This document shows, piece after piece, positions 3,290-21,500 of a DNA stretch of 51,539 bases. The notes beneath the pieces were generated by a model, which saw only the letters and a program-made list of their open reading frames with translations, was not told where the DNA came from and did not search any database. Each line of letters opens with the position of its first letter. Within the stretch, counting starts at the first letter, position 1. This stretch comes from Candidatus Brocadiia bacterium (GTDB lineage: Bacteria; Planctomycetota; Brocadiia; SM23-32), in contig JBKHIT010000033.1 of assembly GCA_046538485.1 (NCBI GenBank), forward strand, positions 1-51,539. Reading direction: 5' to 3'. Made by a program: the position numbers and the translations under genes.

Positions 3290-3349
3290 GGATTATCTCC
3301 TTCAGATAAAGGGGCACACACCGTTTTTGCTTCGCGCAAATCATTGGCG

Positions 3350-3814
3350 TCAGCCGTCAATCCCACTGAGATTTTCCAGCACGTCCAAAGCGCATTTTAT
3401 CCGGTCGTCTTCGGGGGCCAGCACTGCGCGGATATCGGTCACCTCGTCCGGCGGTTTTGTTTCCGATTCTTTCAAGAGCCAGATTTTGGGCCAAATTTCG
3501 CTTTTATGGCCCTCCACAAGTGCGATATCGTAGGCCCCGGCTTGCGAAAGAATGGTTTTGAGTGGGGACGGCTGATGCGTCCGTTGGAAGAGCTGGGATT
3601 TGTCATATCCGATCACGTCCGCGCCGGCTTCGAACAGACGTTGTGTGTCTCTCCCTTTGGAGTCGAAAATAAGACATTCGCGGGCCCGTTTTACGGCAAG
3701 AACTCTCAGTCCCTGTTCAGTGAATTTTTCAGTGAGCTCTTCGATAAGTCGGGTCTTGCCACTGTTTTTAAAACCGCAAATCTGGAGTATCGCCGGCCTC
3801 GAGTTTTGGTTCAC
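3350..3814 (-). CDS. mobB: Molybdopterin-guanine dinucleotide biosynthesis protein B
   Basis: GFKNSGKT P-loop, D.KGRDT.RL.EAGAD, DIALVEGHK; follows moaA. Confidence 0.75.
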   Translation of the reverse strand: MNQNSRPAILQICGFKNSGKTRLIEELTEKFTEQGLRVLAVKRARECLIFDSKGRDTQRLFEAGADVIGYDKSQLFQRTHQPSPLKTILSQAGAYDIALVEGHKSEIWPKIWLLKESETKPPDEVTDIRAVLAPEDDRIKCALDVLENLSGIDG

Positions 3815-3816
3815 CT

Positions 3817-4794
3817 CTACCCCCCTATTTCGGCGACGGCTCTGTGGCGTCTTTGAACTTCGATACCTCGCTTACAGCGGAAGGCACGCCGCACGCATTG
3901 CCGCGCTTGATCGGGATCCAGAATACCTGTGCTGCGGAAGCATTTTGTGATATCGGTACCGGTATCCTGCATGAAACACCCGAAAAGGAAGCCGTGCGCG
4001 GACAGCCGCAGGCGAGTGCAATCGGCGCAGAACGGTCGCGTCTCGGGTGCAATAATGCCGAGGGTGTTGTTTTCAGGTGTGGTATAACGACGCGCCGTGC
4101 GGCCGGCTTCTCGTCCAATTTCGCTGAGGGAATACCGTGATCTGAGCGTTTTCAGAATTTCCTTCGCGGTTACGAACCACTCTACGTGATGCAAACGGGC
4201 ATGACCTATATCCATCAGTTCCAGGAAACGCGGCTCGATATCACGTTCAAAAGCGTATTCCGCAATCGGCAGAATTTGGTCTTCGTTTAGCCCCCTCAGG
4301 ACGACTGTGTTGGTTTTCAGAGGAATCAGACCGGCTTTTCGTGCAGCCTCAATACCGTCAAAGGTTGCCCGGAGGTTCCCTCCACTCATTTGTTGAAACA
4401 AATCGGGATCGAGCGCATCAAGGCTGATATTGACCCGTTTCAGCCCCTCTTGCCGGAGTTCATTGGCCAGATTGCCCAGCCGTTGTCCGTTGGTTGAAAG
4501 CGCCAGATCTATTCCCGGCAAGGCCAGAGCCTCGACCCATTCAACGATATCGTTTCGCACCAGAGGTTCCCCCCCGGTCAGGCGGATACACTTAAGGCCG
4601 AACTCTTTTTGCAGGAACTCGGCGAACGCCCGGATGCCGCCGGCCCCGAGTCGGTTGGAAGTTTCAGCGCCATTGTTGCCTTTCTCCCGGCAATACAGAC
4701 AATGCATATTGCATGCCCGGGTAATGGAGACGCGCAAAGTGCTGATCGAGGGAACGGATTTGCTCATAAAAGAAAAGCCAGAAAGTTGAGTCAA
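3817..4794 (-). CDS. moaA: GTP 3',8-cyclase MoaA (radical SAM); alternative start ATG 4767
   Basis: LRVSITRACNMHCLYC, IRLTGGEPL, VNISLD, FCADCTRLRL...C and C-terminal IGG. Confidence 0.88.
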   Translation of the reverse strand: MTQLSGFSFMSKSVPSISTLRVSITRACNMHCLYCREKGNNGAETSNRLGAGGIRAFAEFLQKEFGLKCIRLTGGEPLVRNDIVEWVEALALPGIDLALSTNGQRLGNLANELRQEGLKRVNISLDALDPDLFQQMSGGNLRATFDGIEAARKAGLIPLKTNTVVLRGLNEDQILPIAEYAFERDIEPRFLELMDIGHARLHHVEWFVTAKEILKTLRSRYSLSEIGREAGRTARRYTTPENNTLGIIAPETRPFCADCTRLRLSAHGFLFGCFMQDTGTDITKCFRSTGILDPDQARQCVRRAFRCKRGIEVQRRHRAVAEIGG

Positions 4795-4802
4795 ACGAGA
4801 TG

Positions 4803-6389
4803 CTAATCCTGCATAGTATAAGGAGACGAGGAATTCAGTTCACCCACAATTGTATCCGAACGCAGTGTACCAGGCGGTTTTCGCTTCTTCAGATTCTCCC
4901 CGGTCCGGGGCCACATTCCCAAAAGTTTTTGTGTTCCCCAAAGACTATTTATCTCGAAAACGGCTATTACTTTTTCGTAGATGTCGATCAGATTGAAACT
5001 GGCGCCGTAGGTGCTTCGCTGGTAAACGCTGCTGACGGAATTGGCGTTGGCAATGACCGTATTGCCGATTTTCGCTGCGTAGGCATGTGACGATGTTCCG
5101 GTCAGAATCAAGTCAATCCCAAAATCCACAGCTTCCCGCAGCAAATCCCCCGCGTCCTCCATCAGCCCTTTTTCTCGGGCGTGAGGGATGGGGGTTACGT
5201 TGTGATGAAAAAACAAGCCGAGAAAGTCTTCTTCCCGGGTTTCCAGGCTTTTGAAAAGCACTTTGCGCTGGGTATCCCCAATCACACCTGTGGGGGAGTC
5301 ATATTGAGATGAACACAAGCCCCGCAGCATTATATTGTCGGTTATGTACGTTTGTTCCAGTGGTCCCAGCTGCGCGGGAAACAAATCATATCCGAGATAG
5401 TTCAAATCCCGCGCGGCAGGCGTATAGACTATCGGTGGTTCCAGAAGAGGGAGATAATCCCGAGCGAGTTCATAATTTTCGCTTATTCCCTCCCGAACGA
5501 TCCCACCGCAATGCACGACAATATCGGGTTGGAGAGAATTAATTGTGTTGAGCGCGTTGTGCAGATGGTCGGCGAGAAATTTGGAGGAATTGGCAATAAA
5601 TGAATTCGACATCTGGACGATGCGTCCCAACCGCGGGCCAAAATCATAGAATGTTCTTTTTCTTCCTCGGGGGAAATTTTTTATTTTGCAGCTGCCATCG
5701 ACCCTCCTGGTTTCAACGTTCACTGTCTCCTCAGTTATTTCTATGATGTTGTAGGAGTTAAGGTCTCCGTAGCGCGTTTTCCGGCAGGAAACAGGCCCTG
5801 CATTGACAAATACGGTATCTTCAACGCGGTAGACATTGGGATAATGCCGGTGGCCCGAAAGAACGAGATCGACATCAAATCTCAGGAACATATCGAGAAG
5901 GTCGCCGGCGTTTGATAGGATATTCCGCTCGCGCCCGGCCCGGGGCGTGGGGATAGTGTGGTGATGAATGGCAACAATTTTTATGGATTTATCATGATAT
6001 TTGTGAAGAGCTTCCCGCATCATGTCGAATTTTACCTGGCCCACACGCCCATCATTGCTGTCAGCAATGGCGCTGTTAACGTAGACCACAACGGCTTCGC
6101 CGTGGACCTCCACACCGTTCACCGGGCCCACGTATTTCTCAAAAAGTGCAATTCCCCCGCTTCGAACGTCATGGTTCCCCGGGATGACAACTCTGGGAAT
6201 CTGGATGCCCTCGAGAAAATCCCGGCCCCACTCGTATTGATCGAGTTTCCCCGCCTGCGTGACATCGCCGGTGTGGAGAAGTAGATCGGACGTGCTGTCA
6301 TAAATGTCACGCTCGGCGATTTTGAGGGCTTCTTCGTTGAAATCCATTTCATCGCCGAAGTGGGTGTCCGAGATATGCAGCAGTTTCAT
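4803..6389 (-). CDS. Calcineurin-like metallophosphoesterase with tandem domains (intact N-terminal, degenerate C-terminal)
   Basis: Domain 1: ISDTH, TGDVT, PGNHD, IHHH, SGHRH; domain 2 equivalents: MSNSF, CGGIV, PAARD, FHHN, TGTSSH. Confidence 0.88.
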   Translation of the reverse strand: MKLLHISDTHFGDEMDFNEEALKIAERDIYDSTSDLLLHTGDVTQAGKLDQYEWGRDFLEGIQIPRVVIPGNHDVRSGGIALFEKYVGPVNGVEVHGEAVVVYVNSAIADSNDGRVGQVKFDMMREALHKYHDKSIKIVAIHHHTIPTPRAGRERNILSNAGDLLDMFLRFDVDLVLSGHRHYPNVYRVEDTVFVNAGPVSCRKTRYGDLNSYNIIEITEETVNVETRRVDGSCKIKNFPRGRKRTFYDFGPRLGRIVQMSNSFIANSSKFLADHLHNALNTINSLQPDIVVHCGGIVREGISENYELARDYLPLLEPPIVYTPAARDLNYLGYDLFPAQLGPLEQTYITDNIMLRGLCSSQYDSPTGVIGDTQRKVLFKSLETREEDFLGLFFHHNVTPIPHAREKGLMEDAGDLLREAVDFGIDLILTGTSSHAYAAKIGNTVIANANSVSSVYQRSTYGASFNLIDIYEKVIAVFEINSLWGTQKLLGMWPRTGENLKKRKPPGTLRSDTIVGELNSSSPYTMQD

Positions 6390-6390
6390 C

Positions 6391-6822
6391 TCACTCCCTC
6401 GAAATAAATGTCTCCAGACTGTGCCGCTGAATATCGATAAGGTCCCGGAACGTCATGATGCCTACAATTTCCTCATTGTCAGTAACGAGGACGTGTTTAA
6501 TGTTTTTCTCAGCCATGATCCGCAGAACGTCTTTCACGGGCGTTCCGATATCAGACGTGACCAAATCGCGTGTCATGACGTCACACACCGACGTCTGGGC
6601 CCCCTTCCCTTTTGCAACAACTCGTTCTTTGATGTCCCCATCGGTGAATAATCCCACGATATCCCCGTTTTCGATGACAGCGATCGAGCTTATATTGAAC
6701 TCTACCATACGCTGTGCGGCATCCTGAACAGAGCTCTCGCATTCAACTCCGATCAGCCGTTTCGTAACGAAAGCCCTTACTGGGACGTTCATATCATAGA
6801 ATCCAAGTGATCCGTCACTCAT
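6391..6822 (-). CDS. Stand-alone CBS-pair protein
   Basis: Two CBS repeats (IVGLFTDGDI, IVGIMTFRDL); RBS AAGGAGG inside the end of pgk2. Confidence 0.9.
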   Translation of the reverse strand: MSDGSLGFYDMNVPVRAFVTKRLIGVECESSVQDAAQRMVEFNISSIAVIENGDIVGLFTDGDIKERVVAKGKGAQTSVCDVMTRDLVTSDIGTPVKDVLRIMAEKNIKHVLVTDNEEIVGIMTFRDLIDIQRHSLETFISRE

Positions 6823-7702
6823 CACTTACCTCCTTTTCAATCTGCGAAATTATATCTTCCAGTATTGTCCGCAGGGAACGCTCAAAATCCATGTTGTCGA
6901 TGATGGGCACGTCGTTTTGCTCCGCCATCCGCAATATGTAGTCCTGCTGCCGGCGAATCCTGTCGATTTGCCCCACGTATCGTTCGGCTTCCCGCTGAGC
7001 ACTCTCTTCTCGAAGATGGAAGTATAGTATGTGCTGTTGTGGATCTGGGACGTTAATAACATATTGGAAAACGTAGCGAAGTTTATCTTCCAGGATCGGG
7101 CGAAGGAATCCTGGAACGATATGCACGCCGTTAAGAATCATGTGGAGGCCCTCTTTTGCCCCCCGCCGCATGACGGCGGCTATGCCTTCGCACACGAGGC
7201 TTGTTTGTTGCTCGAAAGCATAGATGAGTTTATCAGTCACAAGTGAAGTTTTCAGCACATCGCCCGCCTTGAAGGTCGATTCGTGGAGAGTTGGTATGAG
7301 TCCGGGAGATATGATGGAGCGCATAATTTCCCGAACGGTGTCGGATCCGATCACGCGATCAATGCCAAGTCGGTGCCCCAGTTCGGAGGAAATGCTTGAT
7401 TTTCCAACACCTGGTCCCCCACCGATAACAATGAAAAGCGGTTCATCGAGATATCTGATTTGCCGTCGAACACGATAGAAGCGCTCTTCTGTGCCATGTC
7501 CACGCTGAAGAAGGTTTTCGGAGATCATTTCTTTAAGCTTTCCGGACGATACTTTTTGCACTCTCCTGGTTTGAAGTATGCCCCGAATCTCCCGCACGAT
7601 TTCGTAGGCTTCACTCACGGAAAGCCCGCAGCCGGTTAGAGATTTAGCCATAATCCCTTCGGAAAACGGAAATTTCCTCTTGCCCTTCTGAACTTCAATC
7701 AT
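6815..7702 (-). CDS. pgk2: 2-phosphoglycerate kinase (ATP-cone + P-loop kinase)
   Basis: PFSEGIMAKSL, IGGGPGVGKSSISSELGHRLGI, SDTVREIMR, PTLHESTF, GVHIVPG resemble archaeal 2PGK; adjacent to cpgS. Confidence 0.88.
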   Translation of the reverse strand: MIEVQKGKRKFPFSEGIMAKSLTGCGLSVSEAYEIVREIRGILQTRRVQKVSSGKLKEMISENLLQRGHGTEERFYRVRRQIRYLDEPLFIVIGGGPGVGKSSISSELGHRLGIDRVIGSDTVREIMRSIISPGLIPTLHESTFKAGDVLKTSLVTDKLIYAFEQQTSLVCEGIAAVMRRGAKEGLHMILNGVHIVPGFLRPILEDKLRYVFQYVINVPDPQQHILYFHLREESAQREAERYVGQIDRIRRQQDYILRMAEQNDVPIIDNMDFERSLRTILEDIISQIEKEVSDE

Positions 7703-7705
7703 GAA

Positions 7706-9133
7706 TCACTCCCCATAGGCTGTCTGCGCTTCTGCGCACAGATTTACAATGGCATTTGTCAGGTTCTCGACAGTTCCCCCTGTGAGCACTGGCTTATTGT
7801 GAAGGAAAATGATTTGTACGTCTTCGTCCTGCGCGGCCTTCGCGGCGACATCGATGGAGGCGGCTTTAATTTCGGTCAGCAGAACATCAGCATTTTCGAG
7901 TCCATCACGCAGGTCTTCACGCAGCACCGGGCGATTTGAAAGATTGGTGCTAAAACCTGTTACTGTACAGTTGTATGTGTCTTCTAAGTAGTCTTTTATG
8001 TTGTCAGCAACCTTTTCCGGAGCGGTCGTCGCAACGAAAACTTTTCTGTCTGCCAAATCCCCCAAGGGTTCAGGACGGAAAACCGTCAATGCTACGTCGC
8101 ATTGTGGATTGATCCGTTGGATTCCCTCGGCGATTTTATCGACTTTGGCCGAACCGGCCATCGGAGGTTCGCACATAGTAACTACGGCGAGCTGGGAAAT
8201 CAAAATCCTGTATCGTCCCAGGAAATCGAGGATGTTTTCGAGGGGCTGACCGGCTCCTACAGTCACCAGTTTTCGGTCGGTGTGAACGGGGGCGAATGTA
8301 GCCCCGGAGCCCTCCATAATGACAAATTGCGCGGGCAATTCGTTGGCGATCTCGGCCCCTTCTATGACGTTCGAGAGAAAGGGGTTACCTCCCATTCCTC
8401 CCCCGCAACGCCGACACCCGATGGTTGGCACCTGACCGAGCAACGCATCTTCCCAGTAATCGGAGGCCGCATGGCCGCCCTGTTCCGCTACCTCAAGCAG
8501 AACCTCCGCAGTCAATTCCATTTCGCTTGCATCGACGACATCCGGATCCGGCGGGCCACCGCGGCCCATGCACACGGCGAGGGGCTGAAAACCTTTTCGA
8601 TTCAGAAGGCGTGCCACAGTGACCCCGACTGCGGTCTTGCCCACACGTTTGCCCGTCCCAATGATTCCCAGGCTCGGTTTCTTCAGAATGGTACGCATTG
8701 AAGGTGGTGTAAATATAAAGTCAGCACCCATATACGACACATTATGTGCGAGGATATGCGAAGCCAGTTCAAAACGTGTTCGGTAGTCGAGAACCGGTTC
8801 ATCGGATAGATCAATGACCAGTTCGGGCTTGGCCTCCTTAAGGACACGCCGGATAACCTGCAGGGTTTCTTCCTTTTGTTTGCCGCCCACATAGACATTC
8901 CACAATGTGGAATCGCCCCCCAGTTCTTCAACCGCATTCTCCACTTTTTCCGTTCCGCCAATGAACACAAGAGCGACGATGTTGGCCCCCTCCTTTTGGA
9001 GTTCATCAACAGTCCATTTTGTCACAGGTGGATAGTGCTCACCGTCCACCAGGCAGACGGCTTTTTTGTCAGCCAGCGTTTGGCGGAAGGCAATCGGCAG
9101 TGTTTTCGCCAGAGGAGAAGAGTTTTTTGCCAT
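7706..9133 (-). CDS. cpgS: Cyclic 2,3-diphosphoglycerate synthetase
   Basis: DGEHYPPV, DLSDEPVL, GTGKRVGKTAV, MGRGGP, HAASDYWEDAL, GCRRCGGG, EGSGA, TEIKAASIDV; ATG 9133 with GGAG upstream. Confidence 0.92.
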   Translation of the reverse strand: MAKNSSPLAKTLPIAFRQTLADKKAVCLVDGEHYPPVTKWTVDELQKEGANIVALVFIGGTEKVENAVEELGGDSTLWNVYVGGKQKEETLQVIRRVLKEAKPELVIDLSDEPVLDYRTRFELASHILAHNVSYMGADFIFTPPSMRTILKKPSLGIIGTGKRVGKTAVGVTVARLLNRKGFQPLAVCMGRGGPPDPDVVDASEMELTAEVLLEVAEQGGHAASDYWEDALLGQVPTIGCRRCGGGMGGNPFLSNVIEGAEIANELPAQFVIMEGSGATFAPVHTDRKLVTVGAGQPLENILDFLGRYRILISQLAVVTMCEPPMAGSAKVDKIAEGIQRINPQCDVALTVFRPEPLGDLADRKVFVATTAPEKVADNIKDYLEDTYNCTVTGFSTNLSNRPVLREDLRDGLENADVLLTEIKAASIDVAAKAAQDEDVQIIFLHNKPVLTGGTVENLTNAIVNLCAEAQTAYGE

Positions 9134-9574
9134 TGACGACGATCTCCAGGAATAAAAAAGCAAGATTGAAACATGATTGAGCGAGCCGGGAGAATTCCCC
9201 GATGAAATAGTGATTGTAGCGGGAGTTGGGTGACCTTGCCAGTGCGGGGAGCTTTTGCCTCGGCCAAAGAGCCTTAAATAGGCCCTGAAGCAATAAAGTG
9301 GTCTGGAGATGCCGGTTTGGCCGCGGATGCTGAGTAAGAGCACTTTATTTTTGTCACACAATCTTTGGATTGCTGGCGTGTCTCCATCTGTGGTATGAGC
9401 GCCAGGGAGAATTGTATGAATGTTGCTTTAATTTGCTTTATCGCGCTCGCGCGCGCGCAAAACTCAAAAAAGCCAAGAGAGGCATCCTTCTGACAGTGCC
9501 AGGCCCCCGGTTATGCTTTGAACAATTGCTTTTTACCTTGATTTCCCCCTCTTCCTCGTTCTATTTTGATGTCG

Positions 9575-9590
9575 TGTTTCACGTGAAACA
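9575..9590. promoter_or_regulatory. parS site (perfect consensus)
   Basis: TGTTTCACGTGAAACA, 27 nt upstream of the parB ATG. Confidence 0.93.
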
Positions 9591-9617
9591 CTCGAAACAC
9601 TTCAAAAGGAGTTAGGA

Positions 9618-10538
9618 ATGGTGAAAAAACGACGGTTAGGAAAAGGATTGGCCTCATTGATCGGTGATGCCGATACTAAAAAGGATTCAGGGTCCCCGCC
9701 AAATTCCTCGGCAACGGCAGCAAGCGGACACTCAGGGACTCTGCAAATCGAGCTGTCTGCTATTGAACTAAATCCCGAGCAGCCCCGGAAAGAACTCGAC
9801 GAAGAAGCGCTGGAAGGGCTTTCTGAATCTATTAAAAGCGCCGGAGTTCTCCAACCGATCGTCGTTCGCCCGAAAGGTGACCTCTATGAACTTGTTATGG
9901 GAGAGCGCCGGCTGAAAGCGGCTCATAAGGCCGGGCTCGAAACGATTCCCGCTCTGGTCCGTGATATCAGTGATGATCGAATGCTTGAACTGGCTCTAAT
10001 TGAAAACGTCCAGCGTGAGGATCTCAACCCAATTGAAAAGGCGGAAGCCATCGACCGCATGATTGATAATCTGGATTTAACCCAGGAACAGGCGGCGCAG
10101 AAACTGGGGTTGAAACGTTCCACGGTTGCGAATTTTCTCCGATTGCTGGATTTGCCGACCAAAATCCAGCAGATGGTTTCACGTGAAACACTGTCTGCGG
10201 GACATGCCCGGGCGGTTCTGTCGCTGGGTGAACCTGTTTTGCAGAAGAAGCTGGCGAAAAAAATCGTAGACGAAGGGCTTTCCGTAAGAAAAGCAGAACG
10301 TCTGGCCTCACAGGGCCTTAGCTCCTCACGACCATCCCGTCCGGAGCCTTCGCCGCAGGTGAAGCGGCTTCAACGGGAACTGCGCGACGCGTTGAACACG
10401 AAGGTGGAGGTTAAACACCGGGGCAAAAAAGGCAAAATAGTGGTACACTTTGCCAATAACGACGAATTTCAGCGTTTGTATGACCTTATGAGAGGAAATA
10501 GGCGCCAAAAGGGAGATCGGGAGCAATCCGCGGCCTGA
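9618..10538 (+). CDS. parB: Chromosome partitioning protein ParB
   Basis: RRLGKGLASL, NPEQPRK, GVLQPIVVR, GERRLKA, LIENVQREDLNPIE, HTH RSTVANFLRLL; RBS AGGAG. Confidence 0.96.
   Translation: MVKKRRLGKGLASLIGDADTKKDSGSPPNSSATAASGHSGTLQIELSAIELNPEQPRKELDEEALEGLSESIKSAGVLQPIVVRPKGDLYELVMGERRLKAAHKAGLETIPALVRDISDDRMLELALIENVQREDLNPIEKAEAIDRMIDNLDLTQEQAAQKLGLKRSTVANFLRLLDLPTKIQQMVSRETLSAGHARAVLSLGEPVLQKKLAKKIVDEGLSVRKAERLASQGLSSSRPSRPEPSPQVKRLQRELRDALNTKVEVKHRGKKGKIVVHFANNDEFQRLYDLMRGNRRQKGDREQSAA
10175..10190. promoter_or_regulatory. parS site inside parB
   Basis: GGTTTCACGTGAAACA (15/16 match to consensus), encodes VSRET. Confidence 0.85.
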
Positions 10539-10549
10539 AATTTGTGGGC

Positions 10550-10581
10550 AGCAGAGGGCGAAAACAACCTCTGCTTTTTTT
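10550..10581 (+). terminator. Intrinsic terminator after parB
   Basis: GCAGAGG-loop-CCTCTGC followed by T7. Confidence 0.75.
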
Positions 10582-10673
10582 GGTCCAGACGAAACTCCTC
10601 CCGGATCGCATTCTAGAGTTGAAGGGATAATAGCTATACACGTGGAAGACAACCGCTGTATTTTAATCCGTTT

Positions 10674-12134
10674 TCAACCTGCCTCTCGAATTAACAATGG
10701 TTCCTGAGAGCGGATTGTTTCAAAAAGCATCCACGGTCCGACACGGTCGACGTACAGAAAATGCTCGGGGATTCGGCTGTGACGGCCACGCCATTCCAGG
10801 CCGAGTTCGTGCCATCTTTCTACCCGGTCTTGGGTGTTGATCAGGAGATATATGCGCCGACCGGTGAAATCTTCCAACAGGCTTTCGAGTTTTTGTGATT
10901 CCAAATGCATTAAATGGATCCATGCCTGTTGTTCATCGCGACCCGACGCCCGGCGAAATTCATACCCTTCGTATCCGGTGACGATGAAAGATGCATTTGG
11001 AAAACGTTGCTCCAACTCGAAAACCACTTCGCGGACCCTTGGGTCTGTGCGGCGAATCCCTGATGTGAGCAACCTCTTTCTGCCTGCGTGAATCCGGTTT
11101 CCGACGGGCCGATTGTGGGAAAAGTGGCTGTCGAAAAATATCACCGTTGCAACAATTAAAAGGGCGGCTATCCCGACAAAATTGCGAAACTTCTTACCTT
11201 TTCGGCCTGGGACAAGAGATCCCGCGGCCGGCACGCTCAGAACGAACAGCGCGACGAGTGCCAATGTCGTCCACTCACAGTTTGTCGTTAGTATCGCTCC
11301 GGCTTCGGCGGTTCCAATCCGGATCGAATGGGCCAAACCTCGCAGGAAGAAAACGGGATTTCCGAGTATTAGCCAGTTTGCTCCTATCCATAAGATAATC
11401 ACATAAACCCCTGGTGTGAAGAATGTTACAGCTGATCCTTCCAACAGGGAGGGGCTACGATGTTCGAGCAAGACGGCGCAAAAAACGAGGAGGCCAGCCA
11501 CCAAAAGGAGAAAAATTGCCTGATAACGCACGCCCACGCTTAACCCCAGAAGCAGAGCTGCATAAGCCAGGTGGCGAAGCTCAAACTGACGCAACCAGTT
11601 AAGAAGAAATCCCCATCCGCAGACAACCAGCAAGACGAAGAGCATGGTTGTCTGTCCGGAATCAATGCTCATTGCCACCGGGGGGAAAATAAGCAAACCG
11701 CACAAAGCAGGATAGCGCAACCACGGCGATACCCCTTCTGCGTGCCACAGACGGTTGGCGTACAGGATAAGTATCAGTGCAGATATTGCTGCTATCAAAG
11801 ACCAGAACAGGGGGGCGGGCTCAACCCACGGCAAGACCGATAAAATGCCGGCAAGCACCGTGGGCAGTGGGGGAAGACTCATGGATCCGACCAATCCCTG
11901 CCGGCCGCGGCTCTGTCCCTTGAGGAGATCCTGAGCTACTTTAGAACGATGTAACGCTTCTACAGACAAGCCGCTACGACTATGATTGCCGGTTATAAGA
12001 ACGAGGAACGTCACAGCTGAAAATATCCCCACTGCAAACAGTCTCTGCCGCTTTGTGGGGGATCTGTCTTCATCCGCCGTAACCTCTTCAGAGTGATCAG
12101 TTTCTTCGCGAGTCATCCTGAATGGTCGGGCCAA
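10674..12134 (-). CDS. Polytopic membrane protein, likely GT-C fold glycosyltransferase (PMT/ArnT-like)
   Basis: Many hydrophobic helices, PPLP loop, LGLSVGVRYQ, LILGNPVFF; start uncertain (ATG 12116 possible). Confidence 0.6.
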   Translation of the reverse strand: MARPFRMTREETDHSEEVTADEDRSPTKRQRLFAVGIFSAVTFLVLITGNHSRSGLSVEALHRSKVAQDLLKGQSRGRQGLVGSMSLPPLPTVLAGILSVLPWVEPAPLFWSLIAAISALILILYANRLWHAEGVSPWLRYPALCGLLIFPPVAMSIDSGQTTMLFVLLVVCGWGFLLNWLRQFELRHLAYAALLLGLSVGVRYQAIFLLLVAGLLVFCAVLLEHRSPSLLEGSAVTFFTPGVYVIILWIGANWLILGNPVFFLRGLAHSIRIGTAEAGAILTTNCEWTTLALVALFVLSVPAAGSLVPGRKGKKFRNFVGIAALLIVATVIFFDSHFSHNRPVGNRIHAGRKRLLTSGIRRTDPRVREVVFELEQRFPNASFIVTGYEGYEFRRASGRDEQQAWIHLMHLESQKLESLLEDFTGRRIYLLINTQDRVERWHELGLEWRGRHSRIPEHFLYVDRVGPWMLFETIRSQEPLLIREAG

Positions 12135-14039: not shown

Positions 14040-17000
14040 ATGCTGGCATTTTCGCGATACGAAATATTTCTCAGAGTTTGTTTCTGGCTTGCCATCGGTT
14101 CCATCATCTCCCTGTCTGCAATGGCCCAGGAAGGCGAGAATATGATCGGCCGCCAGAGCCAGAACGAGGGGATGCGCGCGGTCCCGACTCCCGGCACCGT
14201 GAAAATCGACGGAAAACTGTCCGACTGGGATTGGTCGGGCCGGATCTGGGTTTTCGCCGACAAATCCCTGCGCTCCCGCTACAGCACCGAAGCCGCCGCG
14301 ATGTGGGATGAAAACAACCTCTACCTCGCCGCCAAATGGCGTGATCCCACCCCGATGTACAGTCAGGTCAATCCTGAATTCAACCCGAGCGACGGATGGA
14401 AATCGGATTCCTGGCAGATGCGCGTGAAAACCGACCGAACCCTCTGGATTACTACCTGGTTCTACACGCCAAAAAAACAACCGGTCATGCATTTCGCTTA
14501 CTGGCAAAACGAACGGAACGCCCGGGCGGGACAGGACGTCACAATGCTCACCGCTGACCCCGGCGGCACCGACCTGGGACGCGGAGCTGAAATGGCATAT
14601 CGTAAGAATGAAAAAGAAGATGGGTACGTGCAAGAGATGAAAATCCCCTGGGATTTGCTCTTCAAAAAAGTCCCAAACATCAAGCCAGGACTCGTCTTCA
14701 AACTCGGTTGCGAATTCCTCTGGGGAGACCCGACCGGGAAAACCTGGCCCATCCATCGCTACGCCGATAATATGCAACCCGACATGACCTCACGCGAATT
14801 CTACTGGTCCAACCGCAAGGCCTGGGGCAACATCCGGATTATCAAAGAAAACAACATCGAACTGCGCCAGTACGTTGGAGGGGAAGCCAAACTGACCGGC
14901 GCGATACCCATCCGCCTCGAACTCCCCGCCGACGCCGCACGGTTCTCGCTCGTTATCGAAGATCAGAAGGGCAACCGGATCCGAAACATCGGAGGGCTCG
15001 ATCCCGTCGACTACACCGTGGAGGATCACGGAGACAAACGTCTCGTAGAGGTCCCGTGGGACGGCCTAACAGAATCGCGCTGGATAACCAAAGGACGCAA
15101 GACGCTCGATGTGCCCGGGAAATTGGTTTCGCCCGGAAAATACAACGTGCGGGGACTCTATCACGAAGGGCTTGGAGCGCGCTACGAGATGTGTTTCTAC
15201 AATCCCGGAAAACCGCCCTGGCGTACCCGCGATGGCACGGGCGCCTGGGGAGCAAATCATGTCGCGCCGAAGAATGTCGCCGCCGCCGGAGATCAAATTG
15301 CCATCTCCTGGCCTTTCTCCGAGGGCGGACATTCAACAATCGTCCTCGGCCCCGATGGCCTCAAGCGATGGGGCGAATTGAGGGGCGGGGAGCACCTCGC
15401 GGCGGACGAAAATTATGTCTACACAATCCCCGGCCACCGCGACCCCGCGGTTCTCAATCGTTTCAGTGCCACCGACGGTACATATCGGCCGTTCGTGCTG
15501 GATGGTGAAGAACGCAAATTTGACCTCCAGCTTGCCACCATATTCGGGGAGGAAGTGGAAGGACAACCGGCCGGCCTGGCGGCCAGCGGCGATCGCATCG
15601 CCATAGCGGAGAAAAAAGAAGAGGAGGCGGGAGTGATTGGCCTGCTGGATGCGGACTCCGCCGAAATGTTGCGTTCCTTTGAAGTGCCCTCGCCCACGGA
15701 TGTCGCCCTGCGCGAGATCAATGGGGCCCTCCAGCTCTACGCCATCCTGGACGGCGAGATATGTTATGTGGATGAAAAAAGTGGCGAGATCAACCAGATT
15801 GACACTCCGGGACTTCAGTCGGCAGCGGCTCTCGATATCGATGCGGAGGGTAATGTTGTGATAGCCGATACCGGGCCGGACAGTCAGGTCAAGGCGTATT
15901 CCCCGGACGGTAAACTGATGTATACCTGCGGTCAGAAAGGCGGACGATCGATACGCGGGGAATTTGAACCGGAAGCCATGGTGCGAATGAGTTCGGTCGC
16001 GGTGGAGGCCAGAGGACAGATTTGGGTGACCGAGAATTGGGATTATCCCAGGCGGGTTTCGGTATGGGATCGGGACGGGCAGCTTGTGCGGGATTACGTG
16101 GGCAATACGGGTTACGCGGGAACAGGATGTTACCTGCATGATCAGGATCCGACGCTGGCGTACATCGGTCCCATAGAGCTCGAACTTGATCGATCTGACC
16201 GTTCGTGGAAAGTCACGCGGATACTGTGGGTGCCGCAGGAGGGCGAGCCGTTTCCCGTGAGCACCAAAAGCCATGCACAATCTCAACGGTTCCGCAGTGA
16301 TGTCTCCGGGGAATTGCGTGAGTACATGTACAACAACCCCTATCGCAACTGGCAGCCGCACGTCATTTTTATGGAACGCCAGGCCGGCTGGCAACCCGTG
16401 GCGGCCATAGGTCGGGTCGGATACATTACGGGCAAATGGCCGGATCGAGGGCGTGATGTGGTGCATCCGGAAGGAGCTCTGGCGGATTTTGATGCGAATG
16501 CGACATTCTTCTGGAACGATACGAACGCCGACGCCAGAATACAGCGGGATGAATGTACAATCGTGCCGGCCGAGGACGGCGATCCAGCGTATCCTCTGGG
16601 CAACGGCTGGGGCAGCCGTGTGACCTCCGGCCTCGGCATCTTTGTCAATGGTCTCCGGCGCATAGGACCCACAGATTTCACCGACGATGGGGCCCCCGTC
16701 TACAAACCCGAAGGGATGAAAAACTTTGAAATCGAAGAGCGGGGCGACCTGGTGCCGGTCAGTGAAGAAAACCGTCTGCTGTGTCTCAGCTGGAAAGGCT
16801 ACGCCGGCCCGACCTCCGGAATGCTCGGCATTGATCTGGAGCGGGGAAAAATTGATTGGACGTATCCGAACCCATACCCCGGCGTTCACGGGTCCCATCA
16901 CGCCCCCATGCCGTGGCCGGGACTCCTCATCGGCCCCCTCAAAATACTGGGTGTGGTGCATATTAACGATGAAGTCGGACGGGTCTTCGCCATGCGCGGG

Positions 17001-18047
17001 AATTTGGGGAAAGATTACTTCATGACCACCGACGGTCTCTACGTCGGTTCGATGTTCCGCGACTGCCGTCTGCCGTCCCACTCCCTGCCGGCGAAAGAAG
17101 AACAGCTCATCGGGATGCCGATGGGAACCTTCAGCGAGGGCGGGGAACCGTTCAGCGGTTGGTTTGGCAAACAGGATGACGGCACGATCCGCATGACCAC
17201 AAGCATGGCCCGGACCGCGGCGATGGTCATTCAGCTTTCCGGATTGGAAACGATCAAACGGATCCCCCCGCGGACGCTCGAACTCAGCACGGCCGAACTG
17301 GCGAAAGCGGAGCAATTCAATGCTCTGAAGCAGGCCAAAAAGGAGGAGCCGCGGCGTTTCAGGGTTGCAAAAATGAAAAGCAAACCGAATATAGATGGCC
17401 GCCATGACGATTGGAAAGGCATACCAGACATGCGGATACAACGTAATGGCTCGCCGCGAAATGCCACGGCCCGTCTGGCTTTCGATGCCAAAAAGCTCTA
17501 TCTGCTGATGACGGTGAAAGATCCCTCGCCCTGGGTGAACAACGGAAAAGATTTCACGCGATTGTTCAAGACCGGGGACGCGGTGGATGTCCAGCTTTGC
17601 ATCAATCCTTCTCCGAAACGCCGTGGTCGACAGTTGCTGGAGGATGACCGCCGAATTCTGGTGGCGCCGTATCAGGAAGGGGAGGCGGTGGTGCTGATGC
17701 AGCCGGTGGCGCCGGACGCGCCCGACAGCCAGGCTCGCACCTATGAATCGCCCATCATGACCAAAAATTTCGACAGGGTCGTTTTGCTGAAATCGGCGGA
17801 GACGGCCGTCCGGAAGGAAGGAAGAAGTTACACGGTGGAGATGGGGATTCCGTTGGCGGATATCGGCCTGCAAATTAAGGGAGGTTTGAAATTGCGGGGC
17901 GATGTTGGTTTCATCTCTTCAAACGCCAACGGCACCGCAAACGTCGCCCGCACCTACTGGTCAAACAAACACACCAACCTCGTCAACGATCTGCCGTCGG
18001 AAGCGCTGTTGTATCCGAAAAACTGGGGGGTGCTGGAATTTGAGTGA
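14040..18047 (+). CDS. Large secreted protein: CBM9-like, FlgD-Ig, NHL/beta-propeller, C-terminal CBM9-like
   Basis: Signal peptide; IDGKLSDW, LVIEDQKGNRIRN...WDG, VIADTGPDSQVK, NIDGRHDDW. Confidence 0.8.
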   Translation: MLAFSRYEIFLRVCFWLAIGSIISLSAMAQEGENMIGRQSQNEGMRAVPTPGTVKIDGKLSDWDWSGRIWVFADKSLRSRYSTEAAAMWDENNLYLAAKWRDPTPMYSQVNPEFNPSDGWKSDSWQMRVKTDRTLWITTWFYTPKKQPVMHFAYWQNERNARAGQDVTMLTADPGGTDLGRGAEMAYRKNEKEDGYVQEMKIPWDLLFKKVPNIKPGLVFKLGCEFLWGDPTGKTWPIHRYADNMQPDMTSREFYWSNRKAWGNIRIIKENNIELRQYVGGEAKLTGAIPIRLELPADAARFSLVIEDQKGNRIRNIGGLDPVDYTVEDHGDKRLVEVPWDGLTESRWITKGRKTLDVPGKLVSPGKYNVRGLYHEGLGARYEMCFYNPGKPPWRTRDGTGAWGANHVAPKNVAAAGDQIAISWPFSEGGHSTIVLGPDGLKRWGELRGGEHLAADENYVYTIPGHRDPAVLNRFSATDGTYRPFVLDGEERKFDLQLATIFGEEVEGQPAGLAASGDRIAIAEKKEEEAGVIGLLDADSAEMLRSFEVPSPTDVALREINGALQLYAILDGEICYVDEKSGEINQIDTPGLQSAAALDIDAEGNVVIADTGPDSQVKAYSPDGKLMYTCGQKGGRSIRGEFEPEAMVRMSSVAVEARGQIWVTENWDYPRRVSVWDRDGQLVRDYVGNTGYAGTGCYLHDQDPTLAYIGPIELELDRSDRSWKVTRILWVPQEGEPFPVSTKSHAQSQRFRSDVSGELREYMYNNPYRNWQPHVIFMERQAGWQPVAAIGRVGYITGKWPDRGRDVVHPEGALADFDANATFFWNDTNADARIQRDECTIVPAEDGDPAYPLGNGWGSRVTSGLGIFVNGLRRIGPTDFTDDGAPVYKPEGMKNFEIEERGDLVPVSEENRLLCLSWKGYAGPTSGMLGIDLERGKIDWTYPNPYPGVHGSHHAPMPWPGLLIGPLKILGVVHINDEVGRVFAMRGNLGKDYFMTTDGLYVGSMFRDCRLPSHSLPAKEEQLIGMPMGTFSEGGEPFSGWFGKQDDGTIRMTTSMARTAAMVIQLSGLETIKRIPPRTLELSTAELAKAEQFNALKQAKKEEPRRFRVAKMKSKPNIDGRHDDWKGIPDMRIQRNGSPRNATARLAFDAKKLYLLMTVKDPSPWVNNGKDFTRLFKTGDAVDVQLCINPSPKRRGRQLLEDDRRILVAPYQEGEAVVLMQPVAPDAPDSQARTYESPIMTKNFDRVVLLKSAETAVRKEGRSYTVEMGIPLADIGLQIKGGLKLRGDVGFISSNANGTANVARTYWSNKHTNLVNDLPSEALLYPKNWGVLEFE

Positions 18048-18538: not shown

Positions 18539-21500
18539 ATGCGACAAAATAATTGGTTTTGTGGCCGCTGTTTGAGAACAGTCCTGGCTCTTCTGTCTTT
18601 ACTTTTCTTTTGCGCGGCGGCGCCGGCGGACAAATATTTCCAGACGCCGGTGCAGAAAAAAGATCTCGACCCGGATGCGACGAGTCAGAAAATCGAGGGA
18701 CAACCAGCCGAAGACGTCCACTTCCACCCGCGCCACAATCACCCCGGCTGGGTCGTCTGGACCCGCAGCTCCGGGCCGGGACACTCCGGCGTGAAGTTCG
18801 GCATCTCCGACTCCGCCGGCGTCCGCCACCTGCGCCTGGGATTCAAACGCGAGATCCCCGTGGGAACTATTTTCGCCCGCGGCGGAGGACAGCTCTCCAT
18901 TTTGAAACCAGAGGCCCCGTATCCCGGCGACCCGGGGCAGGAGAACCACTGGCAAAAAGCCACTCGGGTTCATGAAGGCGAGTACTCGCTCTGGATTCTG
19001 CCTCCGAACACCGCAACCCGGGCGCTACGATTCAGCCAGGAAAGCCGGGGGCGGATGAAAGTGAAATTTCAGGGCCACCTCTCCGGCGTTTACATTCTTA
19101 AAGAGCGCCTGATTAACCTCGCTCCAGAAGCGGACATCATCGCCAGCACCAACCAGAAGAAAGCCCGTTTCCTGAACGATCACTCGCGCGGGGGCTGGCA
19201 CGGCGTATGGGAGAACGAATGGCAAGAGCGTTCGAAAACAATCTCCGATAAATCCCCGGAATCCCTGATGTTGTTGTGGCCGACGGAGGTCGAGCTTCGG
19301 GGACTGTGCGCCCTCTGGGCAGGTTTCAGCCGCGTTCAGGTGGCATGCTACAAGGGGCCTGAGAAAATTCATCCCAGGGAAGCGGAAGCTGAACACTGGC
19401 AAAATTTGGGAGATTTCAAAGTCGACCACCAGTACCCGCGCCGTTTCGCGCCGAACTGGCTGGATTTCGGCAAAACCATCAAAACAAGGGCCGTTAGACT
19501 GACCCTCACCGAGCCGAGCCCCTCAGAACAGGTTCATCCCCATGTCGTCAGAAAACCACGCGGCGGGAAACGCGCGTGGCTCGGCGAACTGATGGCCGTC
19601 CATGCGATTCAGAACGAAGATGCCGTAATCCCGGAGAAACTCCGCCGGGCCGCCGAATCCGATCACCCCCCAATTCCCATCGAATTTACACTGAAAGAAC
19701 CAGGTTATGTCACTCTCGTCATTGAAAACAGCGAAGGGAAACGCGTCCGGAACCTCCTCAGTTCCCGTCGTTTCGAGGCCGGTCAGCATACGGTCTGGTG
19801 GGACGGACTCGACGAGACCCCTGTCAATTCCCGCGTTCACGGGATCTACGATATCCGGGGCCGCCTGGTCGAACCCGGCCAGTATCGTGTCAGGGGACTC
19901 TACCGTGGAGACGTGAAACTCCGTTACCAGATGACACCCTACAGTTCGGGCGATCCTCCCTGGCTTACCCCTGACCACAAAGGCGGCTGGCTCGCCGATC
20001 ATACCCCGCCGTGGGACGCGCTGTTTGTACCCGAAGGCCCGAGTGGGAAGCCGGAAGTCCTTCTTACATCGTATGTTGTGGAGCACGGACACGGTCTGAT
20101 CGGAGTCGATCTGAACGGCAAAAAACTCTGGGGAATCCGGCGTCTGGGAGGCGTCTGGACCGGCGGTTCGCATCTCGCCGCCGACCGAGGAGCGAAGGCT
20201 GATCCCGAGGTGATCGCCTACATCGGATCCTGGTGGAGTTCCCGAGATGGAAAAGGCGAAGTGCGCCTCACAGCGCTCGATAAAGATTGCAACCAGCGGA
20301 CAATTCTGAAATATGAGACAAAAAACAAGAAAATCGCCCGCCTCGGTGGCCTTGCTGTCCACAATGGGATTCTTGTGGCGAGTCTCCCCGAACTGAAAAC
20401 GCTTCTCTTCGTGGATGCTTCATCAGGGAAAACGCTCCACGCTCAAACGATAGAGAATCCGGGATCGATTGCGTTTGATGCCGCGGGACGGCTCCTGATG
20501 ATCCAGGCCGACAAGATACGCCGGTATTCGCTGGACCGATCGGTGCCCCGGCCCGGGAAAGCAGAAACGGTCCCGGCACAAGGATTGAAAGATCCCCGCC
20601 GGCTGAGTATTGCCGAGAACGGCCGCCTGTACGTCAGCGATTGGGGGAAGAGCCACCAGGTAAAGATCTTTTCCCCCGAAGGCAAACTTTTGCGCAAAAT
20701 CGGCACACCGGGCGGTCGGCAGGTGGGCAAATACGATCCGACCAGAATGCACCTGCCCGCGGGAACGGCCGTGGACTCCCGGGGGCGACTCTGGGTCGCA
20801 GAACGCGACAAAACCCCGAAACGGGTCAGTCTCTGGTCGGAAAATGGCGAATTCATCCGTGCTTTCTACGGCCCGCCGAAATACGGCGGAGGCGGGGCGC
20901 TCGATCCGGCCGACAAAACGCGGTTTTATTATGCGGCCGGCGGCGATTTTTCCGGGTTGGGCTTCCGTCTCGACTGGAAGAGGCGAACTTTTGATCTCAC
21001 CGATATTTACTACCGGGCCAGTGAAACAGAAACGCGGATTCCCTGCGGTCATCACAGCACGCCCGTCGCGCCGCAACGCGCGATTCACCACCGCGGACAC
21101 CACTACATGACCAACGCTTTCAACAGCAACCCCACGACCTCGCCCTCCATCGTCGGAGTCTGGTTGGTCAGGGAAAACACGGCCCGTCCCGTCGCCGCCG
21201 TCGGGTCCGCACGGCGTTGGGAAATTTTGAAAGAAGACCGGTTCAAAGACCGTCTGCCGGAGGGATTTGACTGGAAAGATCGTGGCAAGAGCAGAAAACT
21301 GTTGTTCGCGTGGTCCGATCTCAATCTTGATCACCAGTTGCAGCCGGATGAAGTGACGTTCCGTGTGCTGGAAAGTCCGTCCGTGGGCCAGGGCTACATC
21401 CGACGGGATCTGACGATGATGTTTACGTTCACTGATCGGCTCAGCCCGACGAAATTCACCGACGCCGGTGTGCCTGTATACGATGCGAGCAAAGCGGAAC

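Follow-up and report, generated by a model that had tools for sequence, protein, structure and literature searches.

A coupled four-gene cassette in a Candidatus Brocadiia bacterium joins a predicted cyclic 2,3-diphosphoglycerate pathway to a candidate module for its turnover

The 51,539-nt contig JBKHIT010000033.1 (assembly GCA_046538485.1), analysed over its whole length and called the window below, belongs to a metagenome-assembled genome (MAG) of a Candidatus Brocadiia bacterium. It carries six genes that follow one another almost without gaps on the minus strand: cpgS, encoding a homologue of cyclic 2,3-diphosphoglycerate (cDPG) synthetase; pgk2, encoding a homologue of 2-phosphoglycerate kinase; a gene for a CBS-pair protein; a gene for a tandem metallophosphoesterase (MPE); a moaA-like gene; and mobB (Table 1). 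An initial annotation of this DNA had described cpgS and pgk2 as adjacent genes 3 nt apart, and both were found as described. It had placed the pathway at 6815 to 9133, a span which does hold a complete cpgS/pgk2 pair but misses two more genes of the cassette. These CBS and MPE genes are the less ordinary part of the locus.

Reading the junctions directly showed how tightly the first four genes are packed. The cpgS start was assigned to the ATG at 9133; the open frame extends to 9361, but in alignments with both Brocadiia homologues the match begins at residue 1 of the protein started at 9133. The TGA stop of cpgS is followed by 3 nt and the pgk2 ATG, with GGGGAG immediately upstream. The CBS start (GTG 6825 or ATG 6822) overlaps the end of pgk2 and has AAGGAGG upstream, and a single nucleotide separates the CBS stop from the ATG of MPE. 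The starts of pgk2, CBS and MPE are thus each preceded by a GGAG-type site. On this arrangement, cpgS-pgk2-CBS-MPE is predicted to be a translationally coupled four-gene cassette.

Table 1. Genes and other features at the cpgS locus, in window positions
Feature	Position	Strand	Basis or remark
cpgS, cDPG synthetase homologue, 475 aa	7706..9133	-	PDB 8ORK/8ORU match
pgk2, 2-phosphoglycerate kinase homologue, 295 aa	6815..7702	-	NCBIfam NF003259; weak N-terminal ATP-cone and P-loop kinase domain
CBS-pair protein, 143-144 aa	6391..6825	-	Pfam CBS x2, E 2.6e-23
Tandem MPE, 528 aa	4803..6389	-	Pfam Metallophos and internal duplication
MPE N half, residues 1-255, intact di-metal site	5625..6389	-	Pfam Metallophos, E 1.8e-18
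MPE C half, residues 256-528, degenerate metal site	4803..5624	-	internal duplicate of N half
moaA-like gene	3817..4794	-	NCBIfam TIGR02666 MoaA, E 4.4e-77
mobB	3350..3814	-	Pfam MobB
Divergent intergenic region, cpgS/parB, 484 nt	9134..9617	.	parS at 9575-9590

The cpgS product matched the solved cDPG synthetase of Methanothermus fervidus (PDB 8ORK/8ORU) with an E-value of 7.6e-137, residues 23-466 aligning with residues 5-449 of the chain, and the alignment to 8ORK covers the N-terminal dimerisation domain. Identity to the M. fervidus enzyme was about 47% (211 identities over about 445 aligned positions, counted by eye), in agreement with the 41-49% identity to Methanobacteriales homologues. 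The ligand residues named for M. fervidus in PMC10690619 are E45 and K46, contributed by the partner subunit, K145, R146 and K149, which serve the substrate and transition state, the Mg ligands T150 and D208, and the ATP contacts E305, T353, E404 and K406. All 11 of these 2,3-diphosphoglycerate (2,3-DPG), Mg and ATP residues are kept in the window protein as E62, K63, K162, R163, K166, T167, D225, E322, T370, E421 and K423, and they are invariant across 12 aligned homologues spanning the family. The Walker A motif (P-loop, GxxGxGK[T/S]) reads G159-T-G-K162-R163-V-G-K166-T167, in which K162 and R163 correspond to M. fervidus K145 and R146. Residue P335 of PMC10690619 does not map to a proline in the printed numbering; the surrounding TVFRP is retained in cpgS. 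These results bear out the cDPG synthetase identity proposed in the initial annotation.

The gene is the sole cpgS homologue in the genome. No Pfam or NCBIfam family was matched in the copies searched, and since the precomputed database label PF27272.1 is apparently absent from our Pfam copy, this blank is uninformative. NCBI already names the window protein and many bacterial homologues cDPG synthetase, in keeping with the statement of the initial annotation that cpgS homologues are annotated in a few bacteria. A second solved chain named cDPG synthetase, PDB 9SXB (436 aa), is farther from the window protein (E 2.1e-103) and is also more distant from both a methanogen and a Rubrobacteraceae homologue.

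The pgk2 product found its best NCBIfam family in NF003259, 2-phosphoglycerate kinase (E 1e-82, residues 2-292 of 295), which confirmed at family level the identity first assigned to it. A Pfam ATP-cone match at residues 6-83 was weak (E 3.9e-4, 21.4 bits against a cut-off of 25.8). Across 72 aligned sequences, the P-loop residues G95, G98, G100 and S102 are invariant, K101 is present in at least 90%, and a set of arginines is conserved. No relative was found among solved structures. A pgk2 homologue is present at 72 of 90 cpgS loci and lies directly downstream of cpgS in the clade that holds the cassette. The window thus has the same two enzyme families as the M. fervidus pathway, with a full-length cpgS. 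The two differ in the branch of the tree, as the M. fervidus enzyme falls among those of Methanobacteriaceae (scoring 714 bits with locus L038 versus 460 with the window), and in host, a bacterium from saline samples versus a hyperthermophilic methanogen.

An alternative reading is that the cassette makes a different end product, either because cpgS has shifted its specificity, or because MPE catalyses a final biosynthetic step from cDPG or 2,3-DPG to another solute, as in the synthase-plus-phosphatase pathways of mannosylglycerate. The arginine synthetase ArcE (TK2200) is a distant cDPG synthetase paralogue with an LpxK-like P-loop core, found across archaea and bacteria, Planctomycetota included, and it catalyses a wholly different reaction (arginine + ADP + Pi to citrulline + NH3 + ATP) with no pgk2 partner (PMC11032458). 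Synthase-plus-phosphatase pairs are described as usual for anionic solutes (PMC1224877), and the cassette clade forms a branch distinct from the characterised Methanobacteriales enzymes. However, the similarity between ArcE and cDPG synthetase is reported as "low" (PMC11032458), whereas cpgS combines its close identity to a true cDPG synthetase with retention of every named ligand. Furthermore, cpgS is followed after 3 nt by a gene of the 2-phosphoglycerate kinase family, and no arc genes are among the annotated neighbours. The low reported similarity, the 2,3-DPG ligands and the adjacent pgk2 argue against cpgS being an ArcE, a comparison made with ArcE by description only. We consider a different end product very unlikely.

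The third and fourth genes of the cassette encode proteins of less familiar design. In the N half of MPE, the five motifs D8/H10, G41-D42, G71-N72-H73-D74, H142-144 and G179-H180/H182 are invariant in 30 sequences and conform to the calcineurin-like metallophosphoesterase pattern (PF00149: DxH, GD, GNH[DE], H, GHxH). The C half is 27% identical to the N half (E 9e-28), revealing an internal duplication, and was matched by Pfam Metallophos only at E 0.11. The corresponding C-half positions read N262/F, G295-G296, A325-A-R327-D328, H395-H396-N and T430-G431-T432-S433-S434-H435, and these replacement residues are themselves conserved in the 30 sequences. The C half would therefore be a fold relative of the N half without a competent metal site, as judged from these motifs. 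Conservation of the substitutions suggests one live and one dead site, with the dead half under selection.

The nearest solved relatives of the N half by profile were GpdQ, the Enterobacter aerogenes glycerophosphodiesterase (2ZO9/3D03, E 5e-14), and Rv0805 (E 3.5e-11). With GpdQ and the Rv0805/CpdA class III cyclic-nucleotide phosphodiesterases the N half has the five metal-binding motifs in common. The similarity is weak, however, and confined to residues 1-189. MPE is set apart from these enzymes by the fusion of its two copies, the second of them degenerate, and by its genetic linkage to cpgS and pgk2. Its halves might pack in the manner of a GpdQ or Rv0805 dimer. In the ESM Atlas, MPE falls only in generic metallophosphoesterase or CpdA-named clusters.

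The CBS protein consists of two CBS repeats, whose motifs G58..T61..D64 and T125..D128 are conserved in 29 sequences. Such motifs usually bind adenosyl ligands through the ribose. The C-terminal tail, encoded at window positions 6391-6402, is equally constrained: T139-x-I141-S142-R143 is invariant, and E144 is present in at least 90%, of 29 cassette sequences. A complex of CBS with MPE was predicted with an ipSAE of 0.79 (runs of 0.70, 0.80 and 0.79), versus 0.00 for the best of three controls; among solved complexes 116 of 157 attain the ipSAE mark, as do 2 of 215 among mismatched pairs, counts that hold only roughly because self-made alignments were used. The runs agreed in at least 62% of contacts, and partner pLDDT was at least 77. 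The modelled interface involves, on MPE, the inter-half linker (245-249) and residues of both halves and, on CBS, residues 14-28, 43-56 and 134-139 among others. Such a model speaks for binding of the CBS protein to MPE. Because the predicted interface includes CBS residues 134 and 137-139, the C-terminal tail may serve as a docking peptide for MPE.

We then looked at how the four genes are distributed. A first scan of species-representative genomes returned 48 cpgS loci, and a second, alignment-based scan returned at least 579 stretches. These include Thermoplasmatota, haloarchaea, Methanobacteriaceae, Asgard archaea, many Actinomycetota, which form two large clades, and several other bacterial phyla. 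The description of the pathway as archaeal-type was therefore too narrow. The cassette itself is colinear at 35 of 42 related loci, which belong to Thermoplasmatota, other archaea and at least six bacterial phyla.

Table 2. Genes of the cassette found at cpgS loci of different groups
Group	Loci	pgk2	CBS	MPE
48-row clade, window excluded	47	45	39	35
48-row clade without 5 haloarchaea	42	40	39	35
Haloarchaea	5	5	0	0
Methanobacteriaceae	5	0	0	0
Actinomycetota clade 1	15	14	0	0
Actinomycetota clade 2	15	8	0	14
Asgard archaea	3	3	0	3

Gene order in the cassette clade is always cpgS-pgk2-CBS-MPE, save at a Bipolaricaulota locus (L040) where CBS and MPE stand together on the strand opposite cpgS. Of the seven loci lacking MPE among the 42, five break off within 1.5 kb after cpgS. 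The gene is truly missing from the other two, a Methanohalarchaeum locus, in whose genome a single-domain MPE homologue lies elsewhere, and a Neomarinimicrobiota locus, whose genome has none. Outside the clade the association takes other forms: in Actinomycetota clade 2 a single-domain MPE lies directly upstream of cpgS (14/15 loci), the Asgard loci have the order cpgS-pgk2-MPE (3/3), and in an Archaeoglobi locus MPE-pgk2 is divergent from cpgS. The Methanobacteriaceae loci, where cpgS has no pgk2, CBS or MPE next to it (5/5), differ in this from the four coupled genes of the window.

Closer to the host, distribution was patchy. cpgS, pgk2 and MPE co-occur in the same 3 of 41 related genomes, and these were the only relatives in which the full MPE protein was matched at E ≤1e-10. 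Within the class of the host, the cassette turned up in 2 of the 24 genomes from the same family, which belong to a single genus, and in none of the 16 others searched. The MPE N half was matched at E ≤1e-20 in none of 400 other Planctomycetota genomes. In seven of these 400 there is a cpgS-like gene of divergent sequence (35-48% identity). At six loci, from five genomes, a pgk2 homologue is found on its upstream side, an order opposite to that of the window. All 11 ligand residues are retained in three of the divergent genes, and two have changes at E62 and R163. This divergent pair may represent a second pathway type in the phylum.

A tree of 91 cpgS sequences, unrooted and leaving out eight short rows, the duplicate locus of the window and identical copies, placed the window with two Brocadiia MAGs (SH-aLRT support 95). 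This trio lies inside the 48-row clade (support 99), which comprises 27 archaea and 21 bacteria, the window counted as a bacterium. In an unrooted tree of the four concatenated proteins (33 rows, 1396 columns), the same trio was recovered with SH-aLRT 99 and was sister to three Thermoplasmata with SH-aLRT 85 only. The domain label needs at least three changes on the starred branches of this tree. A single clade of the bacteria (17 rows) was rejected by the approximately unbiased (AU) test (delta lnL 333.8, p-AU 2.75e-50), which was run after the tree was seen, on a group defined by taxonomy. Rejection of bacterial monophyly and the changes of domain label show that the cassette crossed domains several times as a unit. 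Acquisition of the pathway from archaea, as first proposed, is thus sustained as far as transfer between domains goes, but not as regards an archaeal donor: the Thermoplasmata sister relationship has SH-aLRT 85 only and, being unrooted, the tree fixes neither the donor of the planctomycete copy nor the direction of transfer.

Genes of archaeal affinity in a MAG could also result from misassembly or mis-binning, with an archaeal fragment joined to bacterial DNA. The genome is 88% complete with an estimated 4% contamination, and the nearest relatives of the cassette outside planctomycetes, in the concatenated tree, are Thermoplasmata. In other runs some contigs diverge at 9575-9594, with loose ends at 9575, 9592 and 9594. 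Against this, the cassette lies within a 51.5-kb contig with bacterial genes on both sides, namely ParB, RsgA, a HolB-type DNA polymerase III delta', Pta-AckA, LipA/LipB, ArgRS, a sulfatase and a GH127 enzyme; ParB, a canonical parS, HolB and RsgA were thus recovered from the bacterial context noted in the initial annotation. Same-family genomes are labelled Brocadiia (Planctomycetota), and the two that carry the cassette form with the window the well-supported trio described above. A 98% identical cpgS protein occurs in an NCBI MAG labelled Planctomycetes bacterium. GC content at third codon positions and codon score of the four cassette genes fall in the 16th-56th percentiles of 2886 long open reading frames (ORFs) of the host, and codon use is thus host-typical.

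Sequencing runs gave further evidence on continuity. The stretch 3300-11000 was found in microbial mat metagenome runs and in salt lake metagenome runs of a second study. A 17,319-nt Logan contig of a possible source run spans 3300-11000 with no difference. Among the listed contigs of the second study none bridges 9089-9177 or 9394-9504. Contigs of that study, 95-99% alike, cover 30 of 30 bins, with a depth of 10-20 in 29 of 30, and bridge both the moaA/MPE junction (4543-4896) and the parS/parB start (9504-9769). The loose contig ends coincide with the edges of the parS repeat. In two runs a variant joint leads from 9592 to 10172, with other letters between. We regard a chimeric contig as unlikely, and an archaeal fragment joined by faulty assembly or binning as extremely improbable.

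Beyond the cassette, the moaA-like gene and mobB lie on the same strand, 8 nt after MPE and 2 nt apart, and may be co-transcribed with it. No MoaA homologue adjoining the cassette was found in the first 50 loci retrieved, and we treat both genes as neighbours outside the conserved cassette. Upstream of cpgS (9134-9617), the parB start is preceded at 28 nt by the canonical 16-nt parS palindrome. The region gave no Rfam match at E ≤1 and folded no better than shuffled sequence (z -0.69); promoter-like sites were at chance level (8 versus 4.8 ± 2.2), as were terminator-like sites. No RNA dataset was among the listed sequencing runs holding the stretch 3300-11000. Farther away are two very large ORFs, 14040-18047 (1335 aa) and 18539-22819 (1426 aa), for which the only recognised features are a CBM9 domain and an NHL match that is weak and below threshold.

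Taking these results together, we think it probable that the locus is a coupled four-gene planctomycete module which would synthesise cDPG as a K+-balanced osmolyte, with turnover regulated by CBS and MPE, and which was acquired horizontally as a unit. The 2-phosphoglycerate kinase would convert 2-phosphoglycerate to 2,3-DPG, and the cDPG synthetase homologue would spend a second ATP to close the intramolecular pyrophosphate ring, yielding cDPG. Trianionic cDPG, balanced by K+ taken up via Trk-type transporters, would act as a compatible solute in the saline mat or salt lake, and may also serve as a phosphate and energy reserve. The tandem MPE, with its one live and one dead site, would open the cDPG ring or dephosphorylate 2,3-DPG. 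The CBS-pair subunit would dock across both MPE halves and gate the enzyme, probably by adenine nucleotide or ionic strength. The cassette would have reached this lineage from a pool common to Thermoplasmatota and several bacterial phyla.

The habitat fits an osmolyte: besides the mat and salt lake samples of the host, members of the clade are named for salt (Natronoplasma, Saliniplasma, Methanohalarchaeum, Natronorubrum). In salt-in halophiles an acid-shifted proteome is expected. The isoelectric points of the long ORFs of this genome are bimodal with a median of 5.7, and the host proteome is not of that pattern. The genome contains two TrkH genes, and no BCCT transporter was found in it, which fits weakly with an organic anion balanced by K+. 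The initial annotation had the bacterium making cDPG as an osmolyte or protectant; an osmolyte in a saline habitat stands as the best reading, but the production of cDPG itself is at the level of prediction.

The same genes could make cDPG, or stop at 2,3-DPG, mainly as a reserve of phosphate, carbon and energy, in which case MPE and CBS would release phosphate or feed glycolysis when energy charge or phosphate falls. The regulation of cDPG breakdown in Methanothermobacter thermautotrophicus fits a carbon and phosphate store according to Roberts' review, where the M. fervidus enzyme is also described as reversible and able in principle to yield ATP (PMC1224877). Conservation of both adenosyl-type CBS motifs and the weak ATP-cone match in pgk2 point the same way. 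However, the cassette clade draws its members chiefly from lineages and samples whose names refer to salt, a pattern that an osmolyte would be expected to give and a general phosphate store would not. We find a mainly storage role rather unlikely, and the two roles are not mutually exclusive.

Within the osmolyte module, the part played by MPE and CBS deserves separate weighing. A cDPG hydrolase activity described in M. thermautotrophicus is membrane-bound and inhibited by K+ and phosphate (PMC1224877), and no gene assigned to cDPG hydrolysis or breakdown was found in the literature searched. The MPE-CBS pair would supply this same activity, and an enzyme gated by a sensor could well be one that K+ and phosphate inhibit. 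We put forward, as a tentative possibility, that the CBS protein and the half-dead tandem MPE are the long-missing cDPG hydrolase with a built-in sensor. Homologues of the MPE N half were matched in 54 of 61 Methanobacteriales genomes (33-41% identity, E 1e-38 to 1e-51 for most top matches), as single-domain proteins not adjoining cpgS, and in 3 of 3 genomes of Actinomycetota in which no MPE adjoins cpgS. In many Methanobacteriales genomes the single-domain homologue lies 25-50 kb from cpgS on the same contig, in a region that is syntenic and forms no operon.

Several observations weigh against the interpretation given here. At the level of the hydrolase, the known activity is membrane-bound, whereas the window MPE looks soluble, with no signal peptide or membrane segment seen by eye. 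Assignment of cDPG or 2,3-DPG as its putative substrate follows guilt by association. Among Methanobacteriales, 50 genomes have both cpgS and MPE, 5 cpgS only, 4 MPE only and 2 neither; both genes being near-universal there, their co-occurrence says little. Haloarchaea with cpgS-pgk2 lack MPE at 5 of 5 loci, and 2 of 2 of their genomes gave no match better than 1e-6; the seven Planctomycetota with divergent cpgS-like genes also lack it. In the titles, abstracts and one reference available on cDPG production with the M. fervidus enzymes alone, no MPE-like partner is named, so MPE is not required for synthesis. Since MPE is dispensable for synthesis and the link is not strict, an accessory role in breakdown or control is the natural reading.

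Further reservations concern the product. The pgk2 score of 278 bits is below the curated NF003259 cut-off of 343, which is why we call pgk2 a homologue within the 2-phosphoglycerate kinase family and not a proven equivalog; its family includes kinases of other substrates, and the mevalonate-3-phosphate 5-kinase family scores 77 bits on it. cDPG is described as "found exclusively" in thermophilic methanogens (PMC10690619), and no measurement of cDPG in a bacterium was found in the literature searched. The functional picture as a whole is drawn from sequence.

The literature searched yielded neither a description of the pathway in bacteria nor one of the four-gene cassette; PMC5148204 and PMC11606122 deal with other diphosphoglycerates only. 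Our analysis adds a planctomycete example of the cassette, the AU test, the specificity control over 400 genomes, the MPE homologues of Methanobacteriales and the model of a CBS-MPE complex. The CBS-MPE pair offers a candidate, open to direct testing, for the cDPG hydrolase and the control of it. Because cDPG attracts applied interest for stabilising proteins (PMC12136491), mesophilic sources of the enzymes may be useful. A mobile, conserved cassette in bacteria and archaea named for salt would shift cDPG from a curiosity of heat protection to a general anionic osmolyte. If the hydrolase proposal is true, cDPG would be no speciality of thermophiles but a dynamically regulated solute of salt adaptation and a phosphagen, encoded by a four-gene unit that passes between mesophilic archaea and bacteria living in saline, anoxic habitats, of which this planctomycete would be one.

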